A stretch of DNA of 64,000 nucleotides. Origin: Spirochaetia bacterium (GTDB taxonomy: Bacteria > Spirochaetota > Spirochaetia > DSM-16054 > Sediminispirochaetaceae). Of the stretch, positions 1 to 10,284 are shown piece after piece (position 1 is the stretch's first letter; the number at the start of each line of letters is the position of its first letter). Below the pieces are notes generated by a model that was given only the letters and a program-made list of their open reading frames with translations, did not search any database and was not told the DNA's origin. The stretch lies in the NCBI GenBank assembly GCA_034520965.1, contig JAXHMY010000002.1, positions 96,001 to 160,000 on the forward strand, read 5' to 3'. A program made the translations under genes and the position numbers.

Positions 1-471
1 ACAAAGATAAAAAGCATTACCCAGCAGTTAAAATCGCGCTTTCCCGATTCTCCCGAATATGGCCTTTTGCAGGAGCAGGTTAAACGAAAACCAACCGCCG
101 AGATTGCCCTGGGGATGCTGAGTGTTCCAGATTCTCTTCAGACCCACGATGATGCGGTATCGGACACACTGATTCAGTCTACAGAAAAATCTTCTTCAAG
201 TGACGCTTCAGATGGGGAGGGCAAAGCCGGCGAAAATAAGCAGAATCAGAAGAGTCACGCTATTCAGACAGGCTCTTTCAGAGACGCGGAAAACGCCCAC
301 TACATGCAGCGGGAACTGGAGAAGCAAGGTTTTACCGCAATGGTGGTTCAAGCCGATGTGAACGGCTCAACTTTTTACCGGGTGTTGGTCCCGATTGCAT
401 ATGGTGAAACGGAAGAGGAGATAGTACTTCAGTTAAAAGAGAAGAGTTTTGAGGGGTATCCGGTCTACTGA
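1..471 (+). CDS. SPOR-domain protein, 5'-truncated by the window edge
   Basis: Frame is open from base 1 (TKIKSITQQLKSRFPDSPEY...). The C-terminal 'AIQTGSFRDAENA...FYRVLV' is a SPOR peptidoglycan-binding signature. TGA stop at 469-471. Confidence 0.8.
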   Translation, partial: TKIKSITQQLKSRFPDSPEYGLLQEQVKRKPTAEIALGMLSVPDSLQTHDDAVSDTLIQSTEKSSSSDASDGEGKAGENKQNQKSHAIQTGSFRDAENAHYMQRELEKQGFTAMVVQADVNGSTFYRVLVPIAYGETEEEIVLQLKEKSFEGYPVY

Positions 472-2036
472 TCTTCTATTTTCTCAACTTGTTCATACCG
501 AAGAGGCTGTTTTGAAGTAGGGACAAAACCGTTTACTCCGATTTTTCCAGGCACCAGGACGATACGCCGGATAATTTCGTTGCTCTTTTGCTCTTCAAAA
601 TAATCGAATGAATAGCACAGTCGTTCAACTACAATGCCCTGGGAGTTCAAAATCTTCAGTTCCAGCACGTCACTACCCATCGAATAGACGGAAAAGCCTC
701 CGCTATGCTGCACTCCATTGCGCTCGAGGGTAAAATAGGGTGGTTCAAAAGTAAGTTTATCGCCTACATCACTTTCATAGACACCCGTGAGCCTGGGAAG
801 ATGTGCATTTCCTTCGTCACCAAAGGAGAGGTCCGTGCTGAGAAAGGTGCTCTGCAGGGAGTCTCCAATTTTCTGGTACATCCCCGACCATGATGTATTG
901 CTGTCGCGCTGTCCATTATGGGAGTTTATGTCGTAAATCTGTAATCGGACATTGTTAAGATCTTCAATATAAGCAGATATATAGATCCGCATAAAGGGTA
1001 CAATCTCATTCTCCCCTCTGATTGCTAGGCTATTGGCCAAAAACCTTTGAGAGCTGGTCCAGGTGTACACTTCCTGTGCATTTCCGCTGTACAGGGTAAT
1101 AGTCTTCTCGATAGGGTTAAAATGAATCAGTGATCTTTGGCTGTGGGGTGTGTTCCGGCCTGTGTTTTTGGTGTATAACCACGGGCCGCTCAAAAAATCT
1201 TCAAACGTCTCACTCCCGCTCTCAAACAGCTCTTTCAGTCGGCGGTCTTCAACCTCCTGGCCGGAGACCTTTTTCTCGAGCACCTGCTCGTAGCTGCGAG
1301 AATCATTTCGCCAAATATACGTTTTTTTTATTATATCACTCAGGCGGTCGGATTCAGTGTCCGTGCTGCTGGTGACAACGGGAAAACTGCTTCCGTTAGC
1401 AAGACCGTTTTGGTATGACTGACTACGCTTTTCCTGCTGTATTTCGATGGTCCCATCCACTTCAAGTGAAAGTATCCGGTCGAAATAGAGTCCATACTCC
1501 TCGGGAGATGTGGTGCGACGAAAAATATCCATAGTCTGCAGTCCACCGTTATTGAGGCCGCTGCACACAATTTCAAGGTTGTGATCGCCGGTGGTATCGA
1601 TAACAGTAACCTGTAGACCCTTACGGCGTTGTGTGACCGTATCCGACCTCCAGGTAATAGAATATTTATCACGAATGGCATCATAATCTGCTACTAAGAG
1701 GAAGATGTTATTCTTTTCCGACTCTGTATCCTGGGCTACCAGCACCTGCTCCTCATAGCGGTCCAAGTCAAGATTTACATCTACAAGCTGCACCAATTGA
1801 TATCCCGGCGGAAGCTGAACCCGGGGAAATTGCCGATTTTCCTCCTGATAGTCATCGCCGGGGGGGCTTGTAGTGCCTGCTTCCTGGACTTGCTCGGTAT
1901 CCAAGTTGACCTTCTTTGGCTCCTGGAGATAGGGGGAATTATCCTTGGACAAATTGGGATCGCAGGCTGTCAATAAAATTACTGCAACCAATATAACTGG
2001 AAAGAGATGTATTTTCATATTTCGGTATATCTTCAT
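465..2036 (-). CDS. Pallilysin (Tp0751)-related adhesin-like lipoprotein
   Basis: Lipobox LTAC; Asp-rich loops DVNLDLDRYEEQV and DTTGDHNLEIV. Its position beside a VWA gene and cfpA matches the treponemal Tp0750/Tp0751-cfpA neighbourhood as recalled. No HExxH motif. Confidence 0.65.
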   Translation of the reverse strand: MKIYRNMKIHLFPVILVAVILLTACDPNLSKDNSPYLQEPKKVNLDTEQVQEAGTTSPPGDDYQEENRQFPRVQLPPGYQLVQLVDVNLDLDRYEEQVLVAQDTESEKNNIFLLVADYDAIRDKYSITWRSDTVTQRRKGLQVTVIDTTGDHNLEIVCSGLNNGGLQTMDIFRRTTSPEEYGLYFDRILSLEVDGTIEIQQEKRSQSYQNGLANGSSFPVVTSSTDTESDRLSDIIKKTYIWRNDSRSYEQVLEKKVSGQEVEDRRLKELFESGSETFEDFLSGPWLYTKNTGRNTPHSQRSLIHFNPIEKTITLYSGNAQEVYTWTSSQRFLANSLAIRGENEIVPFMRIYISAYIEDLNNVRLQIYDINSHNGQRDSNTSWSGMYQKIGDSLQSTFLSTDLSFGDEGNAHLPRLTGVYESDVGDKLTFEPPYFTLERNGVQHSGGFSVYSMGSDVLELKILNSQGIVVERLCYSFDYFEEQKSNEIIRRIVLVPGKIGVNGFVPTSKQPLRYEQVEKIEDQ

Positions 2037-2040
2037 ACTT

Positions 2041-3030
2041 CTATTGGACTTCCGGAAAGTAAGGTGATAACTTATCTAACACTTTTTGTTTTATTGTTTC
2101 AAGGGGCCAGATGCTCTTAAAACCCGCAGCTGTTTTGTGTCCGCCACCACCGTAGGTCTGGGCAATTTCAGCCACATTTATATTGCCCTTAGAGCGCAGT
2201 GAACATCGCAGAATCCCGGCTTCATTTTCTTTAAAAAACAACGAAACCCTTATCGTTTCACTCTTGAGGGGGACATTTATCAGTGCATCAGCCTCCTCGT
2301 AGATAGCGCCGCACTCGGCAATCATTTCTTTGGTCATGGTCTGTGCAGCCACATGCTGATCATAGAATAGTTCCAAGGTAGAAAGCACTTTTGACTGCAA
2401 ACGCAACGCTGATACTGAATTGCTCTCATATATCTTTTGATATATCTTATTCGGATTCACGCCAACCTTGCTCAAAGTGTAGGCGATCATAAAGGTACGA
2501 GGGCTTGTTTTTGGATAAATAAAGGAGCCGGTATCATACACGATACCCGTAAACAACGCCTCGGCTATCGGGAGAGTCAGTTCAATACCCAAATTTTCAA
2601 ACAGTTCGAATAGAATTTCGCAGGTTGATGAAGCGGATTCTTCAATATGATTTACCTCGACGATATCCTCTTCCGACTCATGATGATCAACGATAAAGTA
2701 GGCTTTTACTTTGGGCAAAACCAGTTCTGCTACCAATCCAATGTTGTGCAAATCGTTTGTATCAAGAATAAGCAGCACGTAATCGGCTATGTCTTCAGGA
2801 AGCTGAGATTCTTCTTTTAAAGTGACAATTGTATCGGCACAGCCTAGAAAAGAATATTTTTGTGCGATGGGATCGCTGTTATACAGTAAAACCTTTTTGC
2901 CTAAAGTTTTAAGCGCTAGAAACAAGGCACATTCGCTGCCGACTGCATCTCCATCGGGAGTTTCATGGACTGTGAGAATAAATTTTTTATTATTTTCGAG
3001 AAAATGAGTCAGACCATCGAAGCCTGCCAT
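2041..3030 (-). CDS. nrnA: DHH/DHHA1 family phosphoesterase (NrnA-like nanoRNase/pAp phosphatase or cyclic-dinucleotide phosphodiesterase)
   Basis: Motifs HETPDGDAVGS, ILD, VDHH, YDTGSF, SLRS and GGGGHKTAAG. Confidence 0.85.
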   Translation of the reverse strand: MAGFDGLTHFLENNKKFILTVHETPDGDAVGSECALFLALKTLGKKVLLYNSDPIAQKYSFLGCADTIVTLKEESQLPEDIADYVLLILDTNDLHNIGLVAELVLPKVKAYFIVDHHESEEDIVEVNHIEESASSTCEILFELFENLGIELTLPIAEALFTGIVYDTGSFIYPKTSPRTFMIAYTLSKVGVNPNKIYQKIYESNSVSALRLQSKVLSTLELFYDQHVAAQTMTKEMIAECGAIYEEADALINVPLKSETIRVSLFFKENEAGILRCSLRSKGNINVAEIAQTYGGGGHKTAAGFKSIWPLETIKQKVLDKLSPYFPEVQ

Positions 3031-3040
3031 AGCACCTCTC

Positions 3041-3664
3041 TCAGTTACGCTGGTTCCACGCGTTCGTAATTTCAGCTGCTAAACGACGCGCTTTTTCTTC
3101 AACTGTAATACCAAGAATTGAAATTTGCCAACCATTCATTGGAATTTCTTTTTTTGGCTGCAACAGATGATGCTCCAGATCGTAAGTTTTACCTGGGTAA
3201 GGACTGCCGGGAGGACCTTCGTGGTAATTATCTGAAAGCAGGAGTATATAGTGCTGCTCGGTAGGTGGTGCAGCAGAACTTTGTATGGCTTGTTCAAATG
3301 TATCCAGGGCAGAACCGATATCGGTATAGTGTCGATCCGCTTTCAAATTACGGAATTTTTCAGCAAGGGCTTCAATTGTAATATCTTGACCAATTCTCCC
3401 CTGAAATAGCTGCTGCCTGCCCCCATAGAAGCTTAGCGCATAGACAAAGTCATCAGACTGCAGTAAGTTATTACAGACAGTCTGTTCCAGGTAATGATTT
3501 ACAGAGCCAATTTCCTGCTTCATCGACAGCGATTTGTCAATTAGGAGGTATACGCTCAAATTACCTGTCCGGGTATCGGCATCGACTAATTGCACCCCCA
3601 TACCTAGAGCCATGGTAATGGAGACTATGGAGATAAAGAGTTTGAAGTACGTTTGCTTTTTCAT
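3041..3664 (-). CDS. Secreted von Willebrand factor A (VWA) domain protein, Tp0750-like
   Basis: Signal peptide MKKQTYFKLFISIVSITMALG; MIDAS DKSLS...TDIG...LSD. The start was moved from the ORF-track 3745 to ATG 3664 (GTG 3667 is also possible), downstream of an AGGA SD. Confidence 0.75.
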   Translation of the reverse strand: MKKQTYFKLFISIVSITMALGMGVQLVDADTRTGNLSVYLLIDKSLSMKQEIGSVNHYLEQTVCNNLLQSDDFVYALSFYGGRQQLFQGRIGQDITIEALAEKFRNLKADRHYTDIGSALDTFEQAIQSSAAPPTEQHYILLLSDNYHEGPPGSPYPGKTYDLEHHLLQPKKEIPMNGWQISILGITVEEKARRLAAEITNAWNQRN

Positions 3665-3802
3665 CACATTTATCCTATCATGATTATACAAGTAAAAGAA
3701 GGAGAAAAAATGTATAAAAAAAAAAACGTGCTTTACATTTTGCATAACATATTGATAATCTATTACTATAGTTAGCAGTAAGCGATTTATAAGGAGAGTA
3801 TA

Positions 3803-5878
3803 ATGGGAAGCATAGATTTACCAAAAAGCCCAATGGTGTTTCATCCAACTAAACGAAGTGCAGTTGGTTCTCGAAACTCCTTGGCACAGGAAAGCAGAGA
3901 TCAACAGGAAGAAGTAGATCGTCTTATGGAAGAAGAAGTTGATAAGGTAGTTAACCACGTTGCTTCGAAACTTCCCTCAGACGTGCTCGAACGCCTTGAC
4001 GTAATGGGTGGCCTTAAAGAGAAGCTGTACAATTACTTCAACCAGAATTATCAAAATATGTTCAACCGGTACATAGTTACCTCAGAAGACGAGATGCTCA
4101 AGAAGGTGCGTAATTTTGTTGACCGGGAAGAGATGAAGGTAACCAGCCGATACACTCCAAAAGAGATATCCTCACTTCTGGATGAAGTCGGCGGCATGGA
4201 TCGGTTTAATACCGGTGAGATAGAGAAATCTATTGTCAATATGTATGGGCATTTACAGGGCCATATTCAGCGCGGTATAAACGACCTTGAAAACCTTACT
4301 AACTCCCTGTTACGGCAGAAAACAGATGTAGGCGCATTTATTCGAGGTGAAAATGCCTACTCCGTAGTTAAATGTTCTTTCAAAGACAACATCTACAAAC
4401 CGAAAACAGTCAGTGATGTAAAGCTCTCCGTAAACATTCTTGATTCTGAGCTTATCAGCCCGATCTTCCACTATCAGGCTACCGTGGAATACATTATCAA
4501 GGACCTGTTGTCGAAGCACATCATGGACGAAATCGATAAAGAGATCGAACAGGTTAAGGATGAACAGATTGAGCAGGGTAAGGAAGAGATGAATGACAGC
4601 GAGATCATCTTCGAGAAGATGCGTCGAGTTGAAAACCATACTTCCGATGAAGGTGATGATCCCGATTCCAAGCGCTATTCCATCATAAGCAAGCGCCTAA
4701 TGGACCGGGTAGAAGGTCTGCGGGCCGAAATAGATCCTACAGAGTTTGATTCTCTTAACATTCGTGAAAATCTGAAGAAGATTATCGATCTTGAGAATAT
4801 TCGAAATCGTGGATTCAATACGGCGATTAACAGCATTACCAGTATTCTTGATACCTCTAAAATGGGCTATCAGTACATTGAAAACCTTAAGAATGCCCGT
4901 GAGCTTCTTATTCGCGAGTACGAAGATATGAACTATCGCGAACTCCCGGATGAACGTTATCAGATCAAATTAAAGTATTTTGATAATGCACAGCTGATTG
5001 AAGAGCGTAAAGCTTACGATGTACAGGTGAAGTCCTTTGAAGTAGAAGTGCAGCACTTGTGGGATGTTCTTGAATTGGTCTATGAAGATAAAAAGATGTT
5101 CAAGCGCGTTACCGATTACAACGATCTTGCCAAGATTTACAAAAACAAAATCCGCCGCAAGATTAAAGACAAAACCGGTGATCCCCTCTATGAAGATATC
5201 GACAAAGTGTGGGATGAAATCTCATTCGTAGAACCTGCTGAAACTCAGGTCGAAAAAATGAACCGTACATATGTGTTTGATAAAGATAAAATAGGCAAAA
5301 AACTTGCCCTCATGCAGGATAAGCTTCAAACCATGTACGGATATCGTTATCCGGTTCAGCGCCGTGTAATCGAAGAACGGTTGCAGTTCCTGCAGCAGGA
5401 GTTTAACAAGTTCGATTACTTGATCAATCCCTATCATATTCAGCCGGGTCTGCTGCTTGATGTAGATATCACCTCCATCAAACGTAAAAAGGCTACCCTC
5501 GACGGAATGGCAAATGTATTGAATGAGTTTCTCCATGGAATCTCAAAAGGTTTTCAAGATGCAGCTTTCGCCTCATTCTCCCGTCGTCGATCAACAATAC
5601 GCGAGGATATCGACCAGCATTTTTCAACTGATATGAATGCCGGTGAAGAAGATTCCGGCGAGACGTCCACCAAAGGGAAGGGGTATCTGGATATGCTGAA
5701 CTCTTCCTCGGAGAGTGCCGGTGCATCAGGTAATGAAACAGTGGTAAAAGAAAGCGGTGGAAAGAAGAGTACCAGCAGTAAGAGCGGTACCGGTAAAACC
5801 AGCGGTAAGGGCAGCAGCTCCAGCAAAAAGCGGGGCCGCCCAAAAAAGAAAAAAGATGACGGATTAAAATCTATGTAA
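3803..5878 (+). CDS. cfpA: Cytoplasmic filament protein A (spirochaete cytoskeletal protein)
   Basis: N-terminus '[26 protein letters not shown]' and coiled-coil body typical of treponemal CfpA; 691 aa; strong SD AAGGAG. Confidence 0.92.
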
Positions 5879-5893
5879 TCTGAAATAATTTCA

Positions 5894-5923
5894 CAGCGCC
5901 CCCTTTTGGGGGCGTTGCTATTT
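5894..5923 (+). terminator. GC-rich hairpin after cfpA (weak terminator or mRNA-stabilising stem)
   Basis: CAGCGCCCCC-TTTT-GGGGGCGTTG followed only by CTATTT. Confidence 0.55.
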
Positions 5924-5949
5924 GATTAAAGAATCAAGAGGAAAAAGGT

Positions 5950-6946
5950 ATGGAAGTTCAAAATCAATTCGAACACCTTTCAACCAGGAGTGGTTTTAAT
6001 AAAGCCCTTGGACATTTCAGAAGCATTTCGGAGGTTATCGACCATATTGACGAAGGACGTAACCTTGCCGATTTACTGAATTACTTTTTAGATGAGAAGG
6101 AAATTCAACAGCAGCAAATTCTGCCGACTGTGTTTGCTCTTCTTCATGATAAATACGGTTATTCTTTTCACTCCCATACAATGGAAAAGAGTTTAACCGA
6201 TTTTTCTTACATTCTTAAAGAACTACCGCGATGGAAAGCTGTTGATGTAGTGCTCATTTACTTCCATCCTGATCTGGGAGCTCAAGTTATTAACCCTAAG
6301 AATGAAGACCATTTCGGCTCGCTTAACGTATTAAAAGAAAATGAACTTTTTACCATTTACTGCAGCGCCGGCAATGCCCAGGATGGCGGTAAGAAAGAAC
6401 AAAAGGCATTGCAAACACTAGTAAAAATGCTGAACGGTGCGAAGATAAAAACTCCCGACACGCTTCTAAAAGGAAAATTTAAAGCCAAAACTGTCGAGTT
6501 TGCCACTGAAGAAGAGGATGTTGAGGAAGAAGCTGAAGTTGAAGAAGAAGGAAACAGCAGAAGAGGGTGCCGCTCCAGAAAGTGCTGAGAAGGCCGAAAC
6601 ATCAGAAACCGGAAAACGCAGGATGACGCCTTTCTATTCAATTCCGGTTACTAATGAGCTCTTTCACAATGGAAATGTAGAAGCCTGGAAAAAGGTTATA
6701 CAAAGTTATCAAGCAAAGCATCCCGGTCTTGATGTATATATCTATTACGATGGAGAAAGGATTCATGATATCCATTCCCTTTTCAAGTGGGGCAAAGTCA
6801 AACACGGCAGCACCATACTGGTTGCTGTAGCTGGAGAAGATATTCAAGATGTCGCCAAGCTGCAGCGTTACTTACGCCAGGGTGCCAGCCCGCAGTTTGA
6901 GGCGTTTCTCCGGTATCCTGTAAACACCATACTGAATCTATTCTAG
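5950..6946 (+). CDS. Uncharacterised protein with an unknown N-domain, an acidic linker and a C-terminal HPr-like domain; interrupted by a +1 frameshift at about 6548-6551
   Basis: ORFs 5950-6588 and 6500-6946 join into about 331 aa if one base is removed in gaagaagaaGgaaaca; the Glu-rich linker continues across the junction. The C-terminal part contains VTNELFH...DVYIYYDGERI..HSLFK...GSTILVAVAGED. Confidence 0.7.
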
Positions 6947-6954
6947 GGGGTATT

Positions 6955-9597
6955 ATGAATAAAGCAGTACATTTCTTTAGTCGTAATAAATATGTAAAAG
7001 AAACCAAAACTTGGGAGTTGTTCGGCATTCGCGGTAAACAGGCTATGGAGTTTGCCGCGTTAGATCTTCCAATCGTACCCGGTTTTATTCTCGATTCACA
7101 AATAGCCGCACATCTTGATAATTTTAAACTGGCAGCCGAACTTCCGGAATTGATCACACTTTTTGAACAGGAAACCGGTAAAAAGTTCAACGATCCTAAA
7201 AACCCATTGCTTCTGAAGGTGGTTATAAGCCCCAATTTAGCAATTGTTCATTACCCTACGCTCCACAACTTCGGACTTACCGATGAAACCTTGCCTGGTT
7301 TTAGCGATTATGTCGGAGAAGAGTTTAGTTATCATGAAGTTTTGTTCCTAATTCACGGATTGTTCCAAGTAGAACATAAAATTGCCGAGATTCAGGAAGA
7401 TAAAAAAAATATACAACTGTATACTAACAAAATTTCAAGCCTTGAGTCGGTCCTTCACAATGAAACCTCTAGTGCAAAATTAAAGAAAACACTAGAGGAT
7501 ATGCGTTCCTATCTGCCGGACGACTTTTTCTCCAACGCGTATGCACAACTCGAATATTGTCTTCGCCGAATCAGTATACTGCTGAGTATAGACGAACTTG
7601 ACAATGAAGACGCCGCCTTGATTGTTCAGCCCATGGTATACGGAAATTACGGCAGCGATAGTGGCAGCGGTGAATATGCAACCAGAAATCCGGTAACCGG
7701 ACAGGACAAAATATTCGGCTGGTATGTTCCCGATACTTTTAATTCTGAGGAACGTAAAGGCCAGGATGTAGCCGGTTTATCACCAACATATGTAAAAGAG
7801 CTTGAGAAGACAGCCAAAACGGTAGAAGACCATTTTATGGAAATTCGATCAATCCGTTTTACCATTGAAAATAAGAAACTGTGGTTTGTCGATCAGCGTC
7901 CCCTGGTTACCAAATCTACCCAAGCCGATATACAGCTACTTCTAGATTTGCATCGGCGTAAGAAGATAACCGACAATTTCCTCATCCACGCCATCAAGCC
8001 GGATCAGCTAAATGAAATACTCCATCCGGTTATTCATCCTGAGTCTGTAAAAGAGTTCAAAGAGATTAGCGGCGGTATAGCAGGTGCCCCCGGTGCAGCT
8101 ATCGGCAGGGTCTATTTTACGACCGATTCACTTCTGGATGCATATAGAAATGCTCAGCAACAGGGCGAAGACACACAAATGATCCTCTGTATGCCGGCCA
8201 CCTTTGCCGACGATGTGAAGGCTATCGAAGTAGCCTCCGGAGTGCTCTCTTCCGAAGGTGGTTATTCCGCCCATGCCTCGGTAGTTGCACGGCAGTACGG
8301 AAAGGTGTCTCTGGTCCAAAAGGATCTTAAGGTTACCAACAAGAGTGCCAAAATTGGCCAACACACGCTGAAAGAGGGTGATCTGATTACCCTGCAGGTA
8401 CCCCATTACGGTGAGCCCCATATATATCTGGGTCAGGCTGAACTTATTGAACCGGATCCAAAGGATTCAGGTTTATTAGATTTTGTGCATTTGATAAAAA
8501 AACATGTAAAAGACTTCCATGTGCGGGTAAACGCGGATACCGGCAAAGATTCTCAGCTAGCGGTAGCTTTCGGAGCCGAAGGTATCGGCCTCTGTCGTAC
8601 CGAACATATGTTCTTTAAAGAAGAACGAATAAATGTATTCAGACAGATGATCCTCTCTGAGAATGAAACCGATCGTCGAAAGGTTCTTAATAAACTTAAA
8701 AAGATGCAGAAAGACGACTTCTACAGTATCTTCAAAGCCATGAACGGAAAAGAAGTTACCATACGCCTGCTTGATGCTCCTCTGCACGAATTCCTCCCTC
8801 ATAACAAAGCTCAAACCAAGGCTTTTGTAAACTACATGCACACCGAAGCGGGCAACACAAAAATTACGGAAAAACAGGTAAATGATATATCGGAAAGTCT
8901 GCAAGAGTTTAATCCGATGCTGGGCCATCGCGGATGCCGAATTGCGGTTTCTTATCCTGAAATTTACGAGATGCAGGTTGAGGCTGTCTTTGAAGCTGCC
9001 TTTAAGGCTCGCAAGGATGGGGTAAAGGTATATCCGGAAATAATGATCCCTCTGATCATGAACTCCGATGAGCTAAAACTTATTATCTTCGGTAAAAAAA
9101 TTGAAGGAAAGAACTACCGCGGTTTAAGCGATATTGAAGAGGAGGTCCGTAAGAAGCTGAAAGAGAAATCCGAAATGGAACACCATTTCGGTACCATGAT
9201 CGAGCTGCCCGTGGCAGCCCTGGCGGCCGGCGACATCGCCCGCTACGCGGATTTTTTCTCCTTCGGGACTAATGACCTCACTCAAACCACTATCGGCCTC
9301 TCACGGGACGATTATACCTCTTTCATGCCCGATTATACGCTGTTTGACATCATTCCAGGTAATCCCTTCAAAGAATTGGATCCTTATGTAAAAGAATTAA
9401 TCAGCACTGCAGTAAGGCGAGGGAAAATGACACGGCCCGGCTTATCAACCGGTCTTTGCGGAGAACACGGCGCAATACCGCAAAACATTCGCTTCTGCAT
9501 CGATGCCGGCTTGGACTACGTTTCATGTTCGGTATATTCGGTGCCGATTGCGTTGCTGGCGGTTGCCCAGGAAGTTGTGCCTGAAGCAAAAAAGTAG
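6955..9597 (+). CDS. ppdK: Pyruvate,phosphate dikinase homologue with a degenerate ATP-grasp domain (intact phospho-His and PEP/pyruvate domains)
   Basis: GGYSAHASVVAR (His440), GIGLCRTEHMFF, TIRLLD, NPMLGHRGCR, GTMIE, SFGTNDLTQ and GLCGEHG are retained. The N-terminal GGKG, VSVRSG and DMEF...LQTR motifs are altered. Confidence 0.85.
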   Translation: MNKAVHFFSRNKYVKETKTWELFGIRGKQAMEFAALDLPIVPGFILDSQIAAHLDNFKLAAELPELITLFEQETGKKFNDPKNPLLLKVVISPNLAIVHYPTLHNFGLTDETLPGFSDYVGEEFSYHEVLFLIHGLFQVEHKIAEIQEDKKNIQLYTNKISSLESVLHNETSSAKLKKTLEDMRSYLPDDFFSNAYAQLEYCLRRISILLSIDELDNEDAALIVQPMVYGNYGSDSGSGEYATRNPVTGQDKIFGWYVPDTFNSEERKGQDVAGLSPTYVKELEKTAKTVEDHFMEIRSIRFTIENKKLWFVDQRPLVTKSTQADIQLLLDLHRRKKITDNFLIHAIKPDQLNEILHPVIHPESVKEFKEISGGIAGAPGAAIGRVYFTTDSLLDAYRNAQQQGEDTQMILCMPATFADDVKAIEVASGVLSSEGGYSAHASVVARQYGKVSLVQKDLKVTNKSAKIGQHTLKEGDLITLQVPHYGEPHIYLGQAELIEPDPKDSGLLDFVHLIKKHVKDFHVRVNADTGKDSQLAVAFGAEGIGLCRTEHMFFKEERINVFRQMILSENETDRRKVLNKLKKMQKDDFYSIFKAMNGKEVTIRLLDAPLHEFLPHNKAQTKAFVNYMHTEAGNTKITEKQVNDISESLQEFNPMLGHRGCRIAVSYPEIYEMQVEAVFEAAFKARKDGVKVYPEIMIPLIMNSDELKLIIFGKKIEGKNYRGLSDIEEEVRKKLKEKSEMEHHFGTMIELPVAALAAGDIARYADFFSFGTNDLTQTTIGLSRDDYTSFMPDYTLFDIIPGNPFKELDPYVKELISTAVRRGKMTRPGLSTGLCGEHGAIPQNIRFCIDAGLDYVSCSVYSVPIALLAVAQEVVPEAKK

Positions 9598-9636
9598 TGT
9601 CGCTTTTTAGATGCCTTGTATAGAAGAAATTTAGAA

Positions 9637-9676
9637 GGAGCTGTCCGAGAAGTATCTCAGACAGCTCCGTTTTTTT
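9637..9676 (+). terminator. Rho-independent terminator ending the cfpA-ppdK-like unit
   Basis: GGAGCTGTC...GACAGCTCC stem followed by GTTTTTTT. Confidence 0.8.
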
Positions 9677-9735: not shown

Positions 9736-10284
9736 TTACCACACTCCGAACTTTTTAATACCTGTAATAACCAGTTCAGCTGCCTTGCGGGCATCCGTAC
9801 GGGGAATTTGGGCCTCTTTGTTGAGTGTTTCTTGGAAGAAGAAATTTAATGTATCCAACACCTCTTCGGTTTTGTAGAAAATCAAAGAAAAATTGACTCC
9901 GGTTGGTCGAAGGATAGTAAAGGAGGAATACGAAATAATCGGTTCTTTACTTACCATTACCCGGGTTTGATTTTTCGCGCTAAAAGTATCTACTTCGGAA
10001 AAACGATGTGGAATCTTCAGTCCGCGATCACGTCGAAACGGTTCGATATACTTTTGCGGGAAGCTTGCCGGCTCGACAAGGACAAACAGTTTACTCCCGT
10101 CGGTTTCAAAGGTGAGCCCTTCATCACTTGCATAGAGGTTTTTTACATTGTCATAGGACACTACTTCATAAATAGCATAGGCCGAGGTTTCTTTAAAAAA
10201 AGAGGAAACAATATACCCTCCCTCTTCTTTGGGTAATTTGCCTTGTGAGTATGCCTGAAACAGATCGAGTGCTTTTGGTGCCAT
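9736..10284 (-). CDS. Hypothetical cytoplasmic protein (182 aa)
   Basis: Clean ORF with strong SD AAAGGAG and its own sigma70-like promoter; no recognisable motif. Confidence 0.75.
   Translation of the reverse strand: MAPKALDLFQAYSQGKLPKEEGGYIVSSFFKETSAYAIYEVVSYDNVKNLYASDEGLTFETDGSKLFVLVEPASFPQKYIEPFRRDRGLKIPHRFSEVDTFSAKNQTRVMVSKEPIISYSSFTILRPTGVNFSLIFYKTEEVLDTLNFFFQETLNKEAQIPRTDARKAAELVITGIKKFGVW

Follow-up and report, generated by a model that had tools for sequence, protein, structure and literature searches.

Why is a homologue of pyruvate phosphate dikinase (PPDK) encoded in one run with cfpA, the gene of the cytoplasmic filament protein? The question is raised by a three-gene locus in a 64,000-nucleotide stretch of DNA from a Spirochaetia bacterium (contig JAXHMY010000002.1, positions 96,001 to 160,000; this whole stretch is called the window, and coordinates are counted from its first letter). 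A preliminary description of the locus suggested that the PPDK homologue may be an analogue of Enzyme I of the phosphotransferase system (PTS), which would phosphorylate an HPr-like neighbour. After weighing the alternatives, we lean modestly towards an Enzyme-I-like relay in which phosphate would pass from phosphoenolpyruvate (PEP) to His440 of the PPDK paralogue and on to His15 of its predicted HPr-fold partner, the product of the middle gene, acting on the CfpA filament. The features of the locus are as follows (aa, amino acids).

3803..5878, plus strand: cfpA, cytoplasmic filament protein, 691 aa (NF040882, 1198.7 bits; cut-off 500)
5894..5917, plus strand: GC-rich hairpin after cfpA (z -4.0; putative function, see below)
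5950..6549, plus strand: 5' part of the middle gene, TP0747 family (matches in 80/80 related loci)
6545..6555, plus strand: site of a one-base frameshift in the linker (relatives in frame; probably an assembly error)
6623..6946, plus strand: C-terminal predicted HPr-fold domain of the middle gene, 107 aa (AlphaFold, Foldseek, VIA-align)
6665..6667, plus strand: His15 codon of the HPr-fold domain, candidate phospho-acceptor (His in 80/80, 80/80 and 7/7)
6955..9597, plus strand: PPDK paralogue, 880 aa (TIGR01828, 654.6 bits; below the cut-off of 843.45)
8272..8274, plus strand: His440 codon, equivalent to the phospho-histidine of PPDK and Enzyme I (His in 76/76 and 10/10)
9637..9676, plus strand: intrinsic-terminator-like hairpin followed by T7 (z -5.7)

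The PPDK paralogue

The third gene encodes an ATP-grasp domain (residues ~1-340), a His domain and a PEP barrel in one chain, which is the full architecture of PPDK; PF02896 (PEP barrel) matches with 231 bits and PF00391 (phospho-His domain) with 34.7 bits. The score of 654.6 bits against TIGR01828 does not reach that family's cut-off. The cut-off of the Enzyme I model TIGR01417 is not reached either (94.9 vs 341.7 bits), and no match to the helical HPr-binding domain PF05524 was found in the paralogue at E 1. Judged by its sequence, the protein is not a member of the Enzyme I family. A tree built with FastTree places the paralogues in a clade apart from canonical PPDKs (split support 1.0), and a canonical PPDK is also encoded in 76 of 80 genomes tested.

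Conservation was followed in two sets of loci, the first drawn from 80 of 130 other genomes that carry the locus and the second comprising the 80 closest loci. His440 and the barrel residues R548, R604, E750, N773, D774 and C835 are kept in 76/76 copies, and His440 in a further 10/10. The picture at the ATP site differs. In Flaveria PPDK, Arg95 and Glu324 bind ATP directly (PMC5507339; here and below, citations refer to the available excerpts of the papers). In the canonical PPDK of the same genome the equivalents are R97 and E327, and in the paralogue they are V90 and R301; throughout the paralogues the Arg position (R92/R95) holds Val or Ile and the Glu position (E323/E324) holds Lys or Arg, each in 75/75. 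At the position of K22 there is Arg in 75/75, the EDVVAG loop is lost, and in an ungapped register over a predicted hairpin the Q335 position is Glu or Asp in 75/75 and the R337 position is Arg in 36, Lys in 16 and another residue in 23. The regulatory Thr position is Ser or Ala in 76/76. We take K22, Q335 and R337 to be ATP-site residues of PPDK, and likewise presume the roles of the barrel residues and of the regulatory Thr; our literature search found no paper with the residue names of Clostridium symbiosum PPDK. As a control, canonical spirochaete PPDKs keep K27, R97, E283, D284, D325, E327, Q339 and R341 in 30/30. Basic residue 301, which faces acidic residue 313, could fill the metal site of the paralogue.

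The change in constraint is confined to the N-terminal domain. Among 22 genomes that carry both PPDKs (231 pairs), mean identity for canonical and paralogous proteins, respectively, is 0.68 and 0.40 in the N-domain, 0.63 and 0.60 in the His domain, and 0.62 and 0.63 in the barrel. Erosion of the N-domain goes further in five divergent loci outside the spirochaetes, with both His residues and the barrel retained. One complete genome (G295) carries, beside the partner gene, an intact 586-aa paralogue that has no ATP-grasp domain, with both His residues present (L051 2723-4483, L218 2919-4880); the start of the paralogue overlaps the stop of the partner, and cfpA is relocated and diverged (54% identity). 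This locus may be a module in decay. The paralogue is also ~965 aa long in five loci (L083, L085, L086, L091, L092), which have an insertion of ~90 residues in the N-domain.

The preliminary description had paired intact PEP and phospho-His modules with a defective ATP/Pi site. The conserved His440 and barrel and the altered ATP-grasp domain bear this out; the ATP site is remodelled and not blank, with Arg or Lys at the R337 position in 52/75. That this "ppdK" is no ordinary dikinase is well supported by the residue replacements, the relaxed constraint in the N-domain only, and the canonical PPDK found in 76/80. Even if a relay should prove wrong, TP0746 and TDE0844 are probably misannotated as a glycolytic dikinase, and the view of how Treponema pallidum finishes glycolysis would therefore change.

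The predicted HPr-fold domain of the middle protein

In the window the middle gene reads as two frames (5950-6588 and 6500-6946); close relatives, which stay in frame, have one base fewer near 6550. It is a single open reading frame in 152 of 157 relatives, namely 79 of 80 in the first set (298-422 aa) and 73 of the 77 testable in the second, which rules out a programmed frameshift. Contigs of two sequencing runs differ by one base net at the site; the best-matching run has no contig across it and leaves 6501-6552 uncovered. Two ptsP-like Enzyme I genes are also split into several frames in this assembly (G000 C1:65590-67137 and C2:26693-28903). Since relatives are in frame and these two genes are likewise split, the frameshift is probably an assembly error. 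The three-gene unit reported at first stands; the middle gene is frameshifted, and 6623-6946 is the C-terminal domain of a ~330-aa protein. A separate gene at 6623-6946 is ruled out by this and by its Met, which is kept in 26/80. The N-terminal domain of the middle protein (~175 aa) is followed by a low-complexity linker rich in Ala, Lys and Pro. This N-terminal domain had no match in the PDB, Pfam or the Atlas, and sequence comparison gave no support for an HPr fold in it. A Pfam family attached to the middle protein, PF27497, may already describe its fold.

For the 107-residue C-terminal domain, AlphaFold predicts (predicted local distance difference test, pLDDT, 94) a fold with the strand and helix order of HPr, a beta-alpha-beta-beta-alpha-beta-alpha open sandwich. 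His15 lies just before helix 16-32 of the predicted model, and the ranges aligned by VIA-align, which are ranges only and not a residue-level superposition, put it within one residue of His15 of HPr. Foldseek returned HPr/Crh chains only among the matches listed to rank 32 (best E 0.005), and four HPr chains and NPr took the top five places in a VIA-align search of 48,161 chains (Z 7.7-5.5; best unrelated chain 5.4). The HPr matches have middling scores, with root-mean-square deviations of 2.2-2.8 over ~80 residues and Z of 7.0-7.7. An 'HPr domain-containing' cluster of the ESM Atlas at 0.81 is treated as a lead only. The proposed HPr-like domain is thereby retained as a predicted fold. At the sequence level, searches of Pfam and NCBIfam and hhalign comparisons for an HPr link gave nothing significant, a PDB profile search gave chance matches only, and PF00381 matched none of 62 family members at E 5. 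The motif G-x-H-x-R-P is present in 9/9 true HPr proteins; the middle-protein family reads L-F-H-N-G-N at that place. By sequence, then, the domain is not an HPr family member. The position of HPr Ser46 falls on Asp49 in a weak hhalign alignment (3%), with Asp in 74 and Asn in 6 of 80.

His15 is kept in 80/80 loci of the first set, 80/80 of the second and 7/7 divergent operon copies. A wide sample of 130 representatives from 1.84 billion proteins gave 132 aligned stretches, 24 of them not covering the site; His15 is present in 96 of the 108 that do. Of the 12 without it, five are short stand-alone proteins and four are divergent proteins of full length; the other three are stretches from a pair of long proteins that are probably unrelated. 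Among stand-alone homologues (L188-L209), His15 occurs in 0/22, with His at position 16 in 3. No PPDK-like neighbour was seen beside these 22, most of their loci being short. Some are labelled SAR324 or Deltaproteobacteria, and one scanned locus has the gene between AICAR-transformylase-like and UbiE-like genes. One locus-tag prefix includes both His-less and His15 copies, so the stand-alone and full-length forms are paralogues. The stand-alone pattern fits a retention of His15 only beside a putative donor.

Inheritance and layout of the locus

In a survey of 401 Spirochaetota genomes, the HPr-fold domain was found in 131 and CfpA in 132. Both occur in 129 of the 134 genomes with either (2 have the domain only, 3 CfpA only), and neither in 267. 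A match to the paralogue's N-domain at E < 1e-25 was obtained in 131 genomes, which are 130 of the 131 with the middle gene and G388; the weak match in G388 (E 2e-27, 30% identity) was set aside uninspected as a probable canonical PPDK. With G295 counted, partner gene and paralogue occur together in 131/131 genomes. The paralogue adjoins the middle gene in 76 of 80 loci of the first set, the other four being 5 kb off or elsewhere in the genome, and in 80/80 of the second. The cfpA gene adjoins in 72 of the first 80 loci (2 contig ends, 6 elsewhere), and in 74/74 of the second set with enough upstream DNA. The linkage expected across spirochaetes was thus found. The T. pallidum gene order given in the preliminary description is confirmed by locus L032, where the three proteins are CFPA_TREPA, Y747_TREPA and PPDK_TREPA; the trio of L026 is listed under T. 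denticola, and the annotations of TDE0842-0844 match it. The trio also occurs in contigs L210-L216, whose proteins carry the labels Deltaproteobacteria or unnamed bacteria; it is flanked there by ccm-like genes and lon, and CfpA is annotated as 'cytochrome C oxidase subunit II'. These loci branch deep in the tree, and any transfer could have run either way. Such non-spirochaete bacteria would be expected to build cytoplasmic filaments.

Within the window, the NF040882 match leaves the identification of cfpA at 3803-5878 unchanged, and the coordinates agree with the gaps given for the three co-directional genes, 71 nucleotides (5878 to 5950) between cfpA and the middle gene and 8 nucleotides (6946 to 6955) between the middle gene and the PPDK-like open reading frame. 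The unit had been described as closed by a single strong terminator. A hairpin at 9637-9668 is indeed followed by T7 up to 9676 (z -5.7 vs 200 shuffles); a second strong hairpin lies at 5894-5917. Because the hairpin after cfpA is kept in 65/71 relatives, the unit is not closed by one terminator: the 70 nucleotides 3' of cfpA fold strongly (z < -2) in those relatives, vs 6/71 control stretches inside cfpA. This hairpin is likely a partial terminator or an mRNA-stabilising stem, and would allow an excess of CfpA over its two partners. Promoter-like matches at the locus (14 seen vs 17 expected by chance) were discarded, as the count is at chance level. An RNA contig of a ~90% relative spans the middle gene into the paralogue, which is no proof of a single transcript. 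CfpA itself ends in a basic tail, KKRGRPKK (residues 675-685; window 5821-5860), with a weak Pfam AT-hook match (E 0.3).

On the minus strand upstream of cfpA lies a divergent three-gene run (465-3745), and a further minus-strand gene follows the trio:

465-2036, minus strand: pallilysin-barrel lipoprotein
2041-3030, minus strand: DHH phosphoesterase
3041-3745, minus strand: vWA-domain gene (adjoins cfpA in 10/80 loci)
9736-10284, minus strand: 182-aa protein (near the trio in 9/80 loci, 42-59% identity; no Pfam or NCBIfam match)

Published work bears on a link between the trio and the filament. T. denticola depends on its CfpA filaments for normal division, nucleoid shape and infectivity, and mutants in cfpA have condensed chromosomes and grow as filaments (PMC3398590); an insertion in cfpA could be polar on the middle gene and the paralogue. 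TDE0842-0844 are repressed together in co-culture (PMC3914990). TDE0844 and CfpA both belong to the 16 major bands, each above 1% of protein, of an envelope pellet obtained from T. denticola at 100,000 g (PMC3931704). The paralogue has no clear membrane-spanning stretch (best 19-residue hydropathy ~1.6), and it may therefore pellet together with the filament.

Proposed relay, its rivals and known systems

In PPDK, as in Enzyme I, phosphate moves back and forth between PEP and His by way of the barrel and the His domain (PMC5371819), and since this chemistry is reversible, phosphorylation of His440 would follow the PEP:pyruvate ratio. What goes beyond gene content, residue pattern and predicted fold in the following scheme, we infer. 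The paralogue would take phosphate from PEP onto His440. Its His domain would then swivel off the barrel towards the HPr-fold domain, for which the former ATP-grasp domain would serve as docking site in place of the helical HPr-binding domain of Enzyme I, and His15 of the partner would receive the phosphate. With the pair located on the filament or its membrane anchor, the phosphorylation state would alter filament assembly or anchoring, and the state of the partner would report PEP:pyruvate to the filament. Complex predictions for the full paralogue with the HPr-fold domain scored 0.33, 0.17 and 0.19 against a mark of 0.32, and count neither way.

Several points weigh against this relay. Only the fold ties the domain to HPr (best E in Foldseek 0.005, Z < 8 in VIA-align, hhalign 3%), and Arg17 and Pro18 of the HPr motif are missing from L-F-H-N-G-N. 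His15 sits in a 13-residue stretch that is nearly invariant, and its invariance therefore does not single it out. Four full-length divergent homologues lack it (P0200, P0209, P0216, P0244), and the 22 stand-alone copies without His15 probably form one clade and reflect a single event. The spirochaete N-domain has invariant polar residues (R26, K88, S92, H104, Q225, R298, E305, Q314, S321) that could form a ligand site. TDE0843 is absent from the 16 envelope-pellet bands reported in PMC3931704, and a large oligomer could pellet by size alone, without CfpA binding. The cfpA gene is elsewhere in 6 of 78 informative loci, and the co-occurrence counts overstate the association because kin are not independent. 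Lastly, canonical Enzyme I is encoded in 80/80 genomes tested, and could therefore be the phosphate donor; true PtsI and HPr have their genes outside the locus.

In a first rival account the paralogue is itself a filament-bound structural or sensing part. Its dimers would cross-link or anchor CfpA filaments and would alter their conformation when PEP binds or His440 is phosphorylated; the HPr-fold domain would then be an adaptor, with His15 structural or a substrate of canonical Enzyme I. The paralogue is as abundant as structural proteins in the envelope pellet that also contains CfpA, without TDE0843 (PMC3931704), and its transcript level is high in T. pallidum (PMC8525777). Enzyme I is available in all 80 genomes, and one paper, by its title alone, reports bridging and anchoring components without their identity. 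We nevertheless consider this account rather unlikely, as it leaves unexplained that a domain of HPr fold, with its His where HPr has one, is tied to the paralogue more closely than cfpA is. Asp or Asn at the HPr Ser46 position, as placed by the weak alignment, would also disfavour canonical Enzyme I as donor, given that a PDB title calls S46D HPr 'impaired'.

The two ideas can be combined in a PEP-powered cytoskeletal machine, in which paralogue dimers bridge or anchor the CfpA ribbon and cycles of phosphate from PEP to His440 to His15 drive or gate its remodelling in segregation and division. We regard this combination as decidedly improbable. If true, it would mean a cytoskeleton run on PEP, not ATP or GTP, and a syphilis agent without pyruvate kinase and without a working PPDK.

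It is very doubtful that the paralogue is a new enzyme whose remodelled N-domain binds a small-molecule acceptor, with His440 carrying the PEP phosphate to it, much as rifampin phosphotransferase has swapped domains around the same His swivel. The invariant cationic and polar residues of the spirochaete N-domain, the Arg at the K22 position (75/75) and the Arg or Lys at the R337 position (52/75) would suit such a pocket. The same domain has relaxed identity and is absent in G295; R26 is Gln in 5/5 divergent copies, and H104 is replaced in the divergent copies aligned there and in 5/5 unlinked copies. An HPr-fold partner is left unexplained as well.

That the paralogue is still a working dikinase with a divergent nucleotide site, co-expressed with cfpA to make ATP near the filament, has in its favour the full PPDK architecture, the treatment of TP0746 as a glycolytic enzyme in papers (PMC10013896, PMC8525777) and a genome with T. 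pallidum-type proteins (G088), in which it is the only PPDK-like protein and no canonical PPDK or pyruvate kinase match was found, but this is highly improbable in view of the replacement of both ATP-binding residues of PMC5507339, the acidic one by a basic one, the loss of the EDVVAG loop, the canonical PPDK coexisting in 76/80 genomes, and a possible bypass in G088 itself, which encodes GTP-dependent phosphoenolpyruvate carboxykinase (GTP-PEPCK) and the oxaloacetate decarboxylase beta subunit, a candidate PEP-to-pyruvate route. PtsI and HPr are encoded in G088 too.

We thus return to the Enzyme-I-like relay. It names two candidate partners or regulators of CfpA and two residues, His440 and His15, and if true, a metabolic enzyme would have given rise, independently, to a PTS-like relay with a cytoskeleton as its target. 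A full-text search found no paper on the HPr fold, the lost ATP site or a relay; most subscription journals and the original cfpA papers were outside its scope. The latter are reportedly those of You (1996) and Izard (1999, 2001, 2004), judging by titles in reference lists.

Among the closest known systems, the Treponema loci TP0748-0747-0746 and TDE0842-0844 have the same three orthologues in the same order, annotated as a filament protein, a hypothetical protein and a glycolytic PPDK. With PPDK itself (TIGR01828; C. symbiosum 1DIK/1KBL, Flaveria 5JVJ/5JVL) the paralogue shares the three-domain architecture, His440 and all barrel residues checked; unlike PPDK, it has its ATP and Mg residues replaced, the EDVVAG loop lost and Ser or Ala for the regulatory Thr, and it falls below the family cut-off in a separate clade. 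VadK of mycobacteria (Rv1127c; PMC13400623) would be a parallel as a PPDK descendant turned regulatory His-phosphorylated protein, which is what we propose here. According to that source, VadK has retained its ATP-binding domain along with the His domain and receives its phosphate from ATP, whereas the paralogue keeps the barrel and His domain and has its ATP residues replaced, making the two mirror images. The PTS pairs PtsI/PtsH and EI-Ntr/NPr have in common with the present pair a PEP barrel with a swivelling phospho-His domain and a partner with an HPr fold (here predicted), whose His lies before helix 1 and which would report PEP:pyruvate. In contrast to Enzyme I, the paralogue is of PPDK origin (full-chain identity in the 35% class), and a remodelled ATP-grasp domain stands in place of the helical HPr-binding domain; in contrast to HPr, the putative acceptor has no GxHxRP and forms the C-terminal domain of a protein of 300-420 aa; and unlike those of the PTS, the donor and acceptor genes travel with a cytoskeletal gene. 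Paralogue and partner likely work like Enzyme I and HPr, but belong to neither family.

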